Assembly: GCF_022846255.1 (NCBI RefSeq)
Contig: NZ_AP025682.1
Reading direction: 5' to 3' (one strand)
DNA length: 64,000 bases
DNA from: Escherichia coli
GTDB lineage: Bacteria > Pseudomonadota > Gammaproteobacteria > Enterobacterales > Enterobacteriaceae
Part shown: positions 34,449-34,494 of the stretch, one piece after another
How the letters are laid out: each line of letters begins with the position of its first letter
How positions within the stretch are numbered: position 1 is the first letter of the stretch
Notes under the pieces: generated by a model
What the model saw: only the letters and a program-made list of their open reading frames with translations
What the model was told of the DNA's origin: nothing
The model's database searches: none
Translations under genes and position numbers: made by a program

Positions 34449-34494
34449 AGCCCTGACATTGTGCAGATTTTTCGCTGCGTAGTGTCAGGGCTGA
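34449..34494 (-). terminator. Strong stem-loop downstream of malZ (candidate malZ terminator)
   Basis: Perfect 11-bp inverted repeat cagccctgaca / tgtcagggctg with a 24-nt loop, 33 nt past the malZ stop; followed on the minus strand by a T-rich but interrupted tract. Confidence 0.45.

Follow-up and report, generated by a model that had tools for sequence, protein, structure and literature searches.

The acpH-malZ locus

The stem-loop described here lies in a 64,000-nt stretch of Escherichia coli DNA (the window), within an AT-rich, strain-variable insert found between the stop codons of acpH and malZ, two genes that converge on one another (Table 1). The boundaries of the insert are ambiguous by one or two T residues. 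Apart from the hairpin it holds an orphan gene, and the hairpin is thus situated between two genes of the same orientation, malZ and the orphan gene, and is oriented in sense to each. A sequence-only reading of the window had placed it 33 nt past the malZ stop and some 110 nt upstream of the next gene, and this placement is correct: the malZ stop codon occupies 34527-34529, where the plus strand reads TTA, and the hairpin stands 106 nt upstream of the orphan-gene ATG (34341). The minus strand is the malZ-sense strand throughout.

Table 1. Features of the acpH-malZ region (window coordinates)
Feature	Coordinates	Strand	Remarks
acpH	32294..32875	+	convergent with malZ
Strain-variable insert, AT-rich, ~1,647 bp	32881..34526	.	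between the acpH and malZ stop codons; holds the hairpin and the orphan gene
Orphan gene, 481 aa, annotated as hypothetical protein	32896..34341	-	GGAG 8 nt before the ATG
Candidate extended -10 element of the orphan gene, TGgTATTCT	34389..34397	-	past the hairpin, coming from malZ; deduced from the sequence alone
Imperfect U-rich tail, GUUUGUUAAAUAUUUGU	34430..34446	-	directly 3' of the stem, malZ-sense strand
Stem-loop	34447..34494	-	outer stem 34448-34458 / 34483-34493, 4x4 internal loop, inner stem, A-rich apical loop
Spacer, 32-33 nt, malZ stop to hairpin	34495..34526	-	islet DNA, not in K-12
malZ, maltodextrin glucosidase, 605 aa	34527..36344	-	gene whose transcript would reach the hairpin

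Structure of the hairpin

The perfect arms cagccctgaca and tgtcagggctg are present and fully complementary, as had been reported, but the coordinates 34449-34494 first given for them were off by one base. In the window copy T34447 and A34494 add a twelfth pair to this perfect 11-bp stem, and the outer stem of 11-12 bp contains seven G-C pairs. The description of what lies between the arms as an unusually large loop of 24 nt does not survive folding, since the interior pairs with itself: an inner stem of 4-5 bp forms, the whole making up a helix of 20-21 pairs that is closed by an apical loop of 8-9 nt. An inverted-repeat search extended the arms to 20 nt (34447-34466 and 34475-34494), at which length they are 85% complementary with 8 nt between them.

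When the minus strand was folded with RNAfold, the structure obtained consisted of the 12-bp stem, a 4x4 internal loop, an inner stem of 4 bp and an A-rich loop of 8 nt, with a free energy of -30.4 kcal/mol for 111 nt of the window (z = -3.25). The inner stem is GCAG/CUGC in the window, which has lost the innermost pair of the 5-bp stem GCAGC/GCUGC found in most strains, and in most strains it is the closing U-A pair of the outer stem that is lost, so that the tail starts A(G/A)UUUGUU. Folded in contexts of about 100 nt, the minus strand of every variant tested gave -28 to -33.5 kcal/mol (z of -3.0 to -4.6), and the hairpin alone gave -26.6 to -29.9 kcal/mol on the malZ-sense strand. The plus strand of the window folded into an uninterrupted helix of 20 bp that includes three G.U pairs (-34.3 kcal/mol, z = -4.66).

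A perfect inverted repeat of 11 bp is by itself unremarkable. With a loop of at most 40 nt, 0.53 such repeats are expected per shuffled window, and 40% of the shuffles held at least one, which is what can be said in favor of a chance palindrome without biological meaning. The extended helix, on the other hand, is beyond chance: hairpins whose 20-nt arms form 17 or more Watson-Crick pairs around a loop of 3-12 nt occur three times in the window and in none of 100 dinucleotide-preserving shuffles. The folding z-scores, which range from -3.0 to -5.9 over both strands and all variants, the GC-rich arms within AT-rich DNA, and the exact location between two genes and just after a stop codon also speak against an accidental origin, which is hardly credible.

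Several other hairpins are found in the window. The strongest palindrome in it (12042-12089) has perfect inverted arms of 18 bp, TATCCCTTAATTGTGCAT / ATGCACAATTAAGGGATA, spaced 12 nt apart, and sits at the junction of the ORFs 11473..12132 (minus strand) and 12132..13043 (plus strand). A hairpin with 21-nt arms that are 86% complementary (4588-4634) is located just past an ORF ending at 4578, and a perfect 12-bp stem (13611-13638) follows an ORF ending at 13596.

Distribution and origin of the insert

The region 32700-34700 was compared with 5,426 complete E. coli genomes. Its flanks were matched by all but two of them and the whole stretch by 1,126; in the remaining genomes about 17% of the region was covered, in two pieces spanning 354 bp. 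A 101-nt query centered on the hairpin matched those 1,126 genomes, each of them exactly once and always beside malZ, and had no match in the other 4,300. The hairpin is missing from about 79% of E. coli genomes, whose malZ is nevertheless intact, from which it follows that malZ does not need it. The carriers of the insert include O157:H7, EAEC 042 and O169:H41, and, to judge from protein names, some Shigella dysenteriae.

A match to the malZ 3' flank of K-12, with termination mapped there, would have shown the hairpin to be an ordinary terminator already known, as the earlier reading had pointed out. Comparison with that region gave no match, as K-12 has no malZ 3' flank: in MG1655 the stop codons of acpH and malZ are 4 bp apart (...GCGTTATAAaacgTTAGTTC...), and the explanation by an ordinary K-12 terminator cannot apply. 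The hairpin belongs to inserted DNA and not to a conserved flank of malZ, and the insert itself is best regarded as horizontally acquired, a foreign origin being supported by its GC content of 33-40%, against about 54% in the flanks. Two Escherichia outgroup-like contigs, whose acpH is 89-93% identical to that of the window, have the empty junction of K-12 type with the ending TTATAA, which indicates that the insert was probably gained at a site that was empty in the ancestor.

The orphan gene

The orphan gene has been found only in E. coli and Shigella; of complete E. coli genomes, about 21% carry it. Its ORF is intact in all ten genomes examined, with a mean dN/dS of about 0.73, and the protein shows in-frame insertions and deletions of 4-residue units in a Lys/Glu-rich tract (residues ~283-300). 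The version encoded in the window is the exact E. coli sequence found on 333 contigs. In collections of 5.8 billion clustered proteins and of 1.84 billion cluster representatives, no relative from outside Escherichia and Shigella turned up, with the exception of a weak similarity to a PKD-like repeat (residues 102-158); an exhaustive HMMER search of the representatives returned only the cluster of the protein itself, its fragments and one weak match to that repeat. Searches of the protein against Pfam, NCBIfam, PADLOC, PHROGs and PDB sequences gave nothing above threshold. In plasmid and phage collections, tblastn found only two matches, both labeled as plasmids, which are in fact mislabeled 4.9-Mb E. 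coli chromosomes. The model obtained with AlphaFold2 from a 20-sequence alignment was unusable (mean pLDDT 36.5). A scan for consensus promoters, which requires a -35 hexamer, found none on the minus strand between the hairpin and the orphan-gene ATG.

Relation to known classes of DNA sites and repeats

Two further suggestions had been made on the basis of the sequence, namely that the palindrome binds a protein or that it is a remnant marking the insertion junction. They are forms of a more general possibility, in which the hairpin would be a site that acts as DNA: a protein-binding palindrome, a recombination site (attC-like or another single-strand hairpin site), or the end of a mobile element that mediated insertion of the islet. 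The idea of a junction remnant is right inasmuch as the hairpin consists of inserted DNA and lies just 33 nt from the malZ-side edge of the islet. However, it has no copy or partner at the other end, there is no target-site duplication at the junctions, and terminal repeats are lacking, the two islet ends being unrelated (score 15 vs. a null mean of 15.2). Membership among transposon or IS ends is further contradicted by the sole ORF of the insert, in which neither a transposase domain nor any other is recognizable, and no recognizable integrase is encoded there. The protein-binding palindrome, and with it the operator of a dimeric transcription factor, founders on the spacing of the half-sites, which is not fixed: in the 33 copies described below the arms are 24, 25, 26 or 27 nt apart, a variation that argues against fixed two-arm protein binding and that a hairpin loop tolerates.

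The likeness to an integron attC site is somewhat closer. As in such sites, an imperfect palindrome is found beside a single gene cassette that looks promoter-less, and a heptamer, GTTAAAT, that matches the R' core GTTRRRY follows the stem by 5 nt on the minus strand. Nevertheless, the heptamer occurs on one side only, without the paired R'' (RYYYAAC) and R' (GTTRRRY) cores, the hairpin is located upstream of the ORF, neither an integrase nor a cassette array is present, and the occurrence is unique.

The hairpin is not a dispersed repeat family either. REP/BIME-like palindromes are dispersed, and this element is single-copy in E. coli, at exactly one place per genome in all 1,126 genomes. A search of the window for sequences within one mismatch of an arm returned only the two arms of the hairpin itself, and Rfam (E<=10) had no match in 32500-34900. 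A scan of 100,044 species genomes for the two exact arms at a distance of 10-40 nt turned up just 11 occurrences, each of them isolated, in unrelated phyla and none enterobacterial. This scarcity, together with the absence of the orphan gene from plasmid and phage collections, also argues against a mobile site, and a DNA-level role for the hairpin is very unlikely.

Comparison with intrinsic terminators

The hairpin at 37902-37929, downstream of brnQ, is a canonical, A/U-flanked terminator that looks bidirectional. It was taken as the benchmark, with its stem of 11 bp, its loop of 6 nt and its tail UUUUAUUGU. Like this and other intrinsic terminators of E. coli, the malZ-side hairpin is a stable stem-loop with a GC-rich stem on the coding strand, 33 nt after the stop codon, it is followed by a tail that contains U residues, and it is placed in an intergenic region between co-oriented genes. 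It differs from them in its size of 48 nt, with a stem that on the malZ strand is broken by the 4x4 internal loop, where intrinsic terminators have a compact, uninterrupted stem of 5-14 bp; its apical loop is of 8-9 nt, and that of a compact terminator hairpin of about 3-8 nt. A further difference is in the tail, as it reads UUUGUU, has runs of at most three U and starts 2 nt after the stem in most strains.

That the hairpin has no clean U-tract had been remarked before, and is correct: the minus-strand tail, GUUUGUUAAAUAUUUGU, has five U in its first 8 nt and a longest run of three. It is invariant except for its first base (G or A) in ten RefSeq genomes that were sampled independently of the tail, and across strains it takes the form (A)(G/A)UUUGUUAAAU, an interrupted run that falls short of the U-tract of about 7-9 nt expected directly after the stem. 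On the weighted U score, the malZ-side hairpin reaches 1.2-2.0 and the brnQ terminator 4.1, and the hairpin energies per nucleotide are -0.55 to -0.62 and -0.81 kcal/mol, respectively. A Lesnik-type discriminant gave -27 to -38 as against +36 for the brnQ terminator, values of which only the relative ranking is safe. A terminator scan of the window did not call the malZ-side hairpin. These scores, far below those of the brnQ terminator, and the weak U-tract bear out the earlier judgment that it is atypical for an intrinsic terminator; by such sequence features it would be at best a weak, non-canonical one. The suggestion that it may be the malZ terminator is accurate as regards its situation between malZ and the islet gene, its terminator-like form and its absence from K-12, but sits poorly with the quality of the U-tract and with the outcome of the scan.

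Stem-loops at the 3' ends of mRNAs that stabilize the transcript or mark the ends to which Rho-terminated transcripts have been trimmed, including those formed by REP/BIME elements, offer another comparison. They resemble the malZ-side hairpin in that they are stable structures found after a gene without a proper U-tract, and that could act as barriers to 3' exonucleases. The resemblance does not extend to the sequence, as the hairpin belongs to no repeat family, is found once per genome and at this locus only, and bears no sequence relation to REP.

Conservation among copies and choice of strand

Copies of the hairpin were collected from ten RefSeq genomes and from 23 metagenome contigs that had been found with the tail sequence, and these 33 copies represent 12 haplotypes. 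All of them fold alike, the structure being preserved in 33 of 33. Over the 22 arm positions, the 12 haplotypes show a single singleton change, an uncompensated C->A in the left arm of one copy (L032). The interior has about six variable sites, in addition to indels and changes in the length of an A run, the length of the apical loop varies freely, and the 33-nt spacer has about five variable sites. The contrast between 1 variable position in 22 in the arms and about 11 in 59 elsewhere is weak. No compensatory (double) change in stem pairs was found among the 12 haplotypes, and selection on the structure is therefore unproven; since the copies of the region are 92-99% identical, they are too similar for covariation to test it.

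This pattern bears on the possibility that the hairpin is a functionless passenger, a relic of the donor (for instance, the terminator of the gene that preceded the orphan gene there) that is neither used nor selected in E. coli. Such a relic would be expected to show no covariation, and the arms are invariant mainly as a result of the high identity of the copies. The uncompensated change in L032, which is a natural copy, the missing innermost pair in the window copy, and the fact that most E. coli do without the hairpin point the same way. In addition, the frame-3 reading of the spacer ends with a TAG 5 nt before the hairpin, which would fit a truncated donor gene. On the other hand, variation is concentrated in the interior and the flanks, weak though that contrast is, and a hairpin of -27 kcal/mol in a transcribed position would affect the 3' ends of RNA whether it is selected or not. 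The passenger hypothesis therefore differs from the explanation preferred below only in whether this effect matters; it is on balance unlikely, but is the alternative with the most weight.

Another possibility is that the structure has its role in an RNA of the plus strand, as the 3' terminus of a transcript that runs antisense to the orphan gene, originates from acpH read-through or from an internal antisense promoter, and would end here before entering malZ in antisense. Wherever the helix departs from Watson-Crick pairing, as it does at the closing U.G of most strains, the plus strand has a G.U and the minus strand a C.A; of the pair cells, 95.6% are formed in plus-strand RNA and 82.5% in minus-strand RNA. 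On the plus strand the helix runs without a break over 20-21 pairs and, at -34 to -37.5 kcal/mol, is more stable than its minus-strand counterpart by 4-8 kcal/mol in every variant. Furthermore, acpH has no terminator of its own, as just 20 bp part its stop codon from that of the orphan gene. Nevertheless, the probability that three wobble positions fall on one strand by chance is about 1 in 4, the plus-strand tail, UGACUAACGACGUAAC, has no U-tract (two U in the first 8 nt), and promoter-like sites on the plus strand are no commoner than in shuffles. A 120-codon ORF on the plus strand (34079-34441) stops 6 nt short of the hairpin, which might have served as its terminator; as an internal stop codon interrupts this ORF in O157:H7 and GF3-3, it was set aside as an antisense shadow ORF. 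A plus-strand RNA element is thus improbable. Less probable still is the more specific proposal that the hairpin is the 3' structure of a cis-antisense RNA that covers the promoter and 5' end of the orphan gene and is maintained as RNA on that strand. If correct, it would explain why all the wobbles are on the plus strand, and would endow a fast-evolving, lineage-restricted gene with a private regulatory circuit.

A possible role at the 3' end of the malZ transcript

The explanation that we favor, if tentatively and with slightly less than even confidence, is that the hairpin defines or protects the 3' end of malZ mRNA, as a leaky terminator, a barrier to 3' exonucleases or both, and that it partly insulates the orphan gene. 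It would have arrived with the insert, probably within the upstream region of the orphan gene itself, where it may, for instance, have terminated the gene before it in the donor. In the malZ transcript, a hairpin of -27 to -30 kcal/mol would form and be followed by the weak U-rich tail. It might then act as a weak, non-canonical intrinsic terminator, as an exonuclease barrier following Rho-dependent termination, or in both capacities. Lying ahead of the likely promoter and ribosome-binding site of the orphan gene, it would in part shield this AT-rich gene from MalT-driven read-through. That the hairpin is transcribed, and that it has any termination, stabilization or insulation activity, we infer from its sequence and position. 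A literature search on the acpH-malZ locus and on 3'-end mapping in EHEC found nothing on this locus, and no such mapping for an insert-bearing strain.

In insert-bearing E. coli (roughly 21%, including O157:H7, 042 and some S. dysenteriae), no obvious barrier other than the hairpin separates the maltose-induced malZ transcript from the orphan gene, so that the leakiness of the hairpin would decide whether the orphan gene responds to maltodextrins. The practical consequences are small, and current understanding is unchallenged: the hairpin is an unannotated, single-copy stem-loop of an ordinary kind, located after a gene on a strain-variable insert.

Variation at the acpH-malZ junction

The two haplotypes of the junction differ at the end of acpH as well. 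The gene closes with the codons CTC TGA where the insert is present and with TTA TAA where the site is empty (K-12 and the contigs L049 and L050). These endings (32870-32880 in the window) encode the same amino acids even though four of the six bases differ, and the flanks, too, are only about 96% identical to K-12. The haplotypes therefore differ beyond the insert, which points to its acquisition through recombination from a divergent donor, or to an old polymorphism.

The site that follows acpH is a hotspot of gene turnover. The gap between malZ and acpH holds either nothing (4 bp) or the insert in E. coli, and in Salmonella and Citrobacter a gene for an AhpC/TSA-family peroxiredoxin is found downstream of acpH in place of the insert. 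In Salmonella enterica (L051, 3583-4465), this gene occupies the acpH-malZ gap, and a canonical bidirectional terminator, AAAAGGCTCGCGAATGCGAGCCTTTTTT, adjoins malZ at the place equivalent to that of the hairpin. In Citrobacter koseri (L052, 3637-4538), acpH is followed by the same peroxiredoxin gene and then by genes for DUF3999 and DUF2339 proteins, not by malZ. E. coli DCM188-6 (L023, NZ_CP136396.1) is without malZ, and proY comes directly after acpH. As to the window itself, its proY-brnQ-phoR segment, a core region (36500-40500), is at most 98.7% identical to any one of 5,424 complete E. coli genomes, which indicates that its source strain is not closely represented among the complete genomes of RefSeq.
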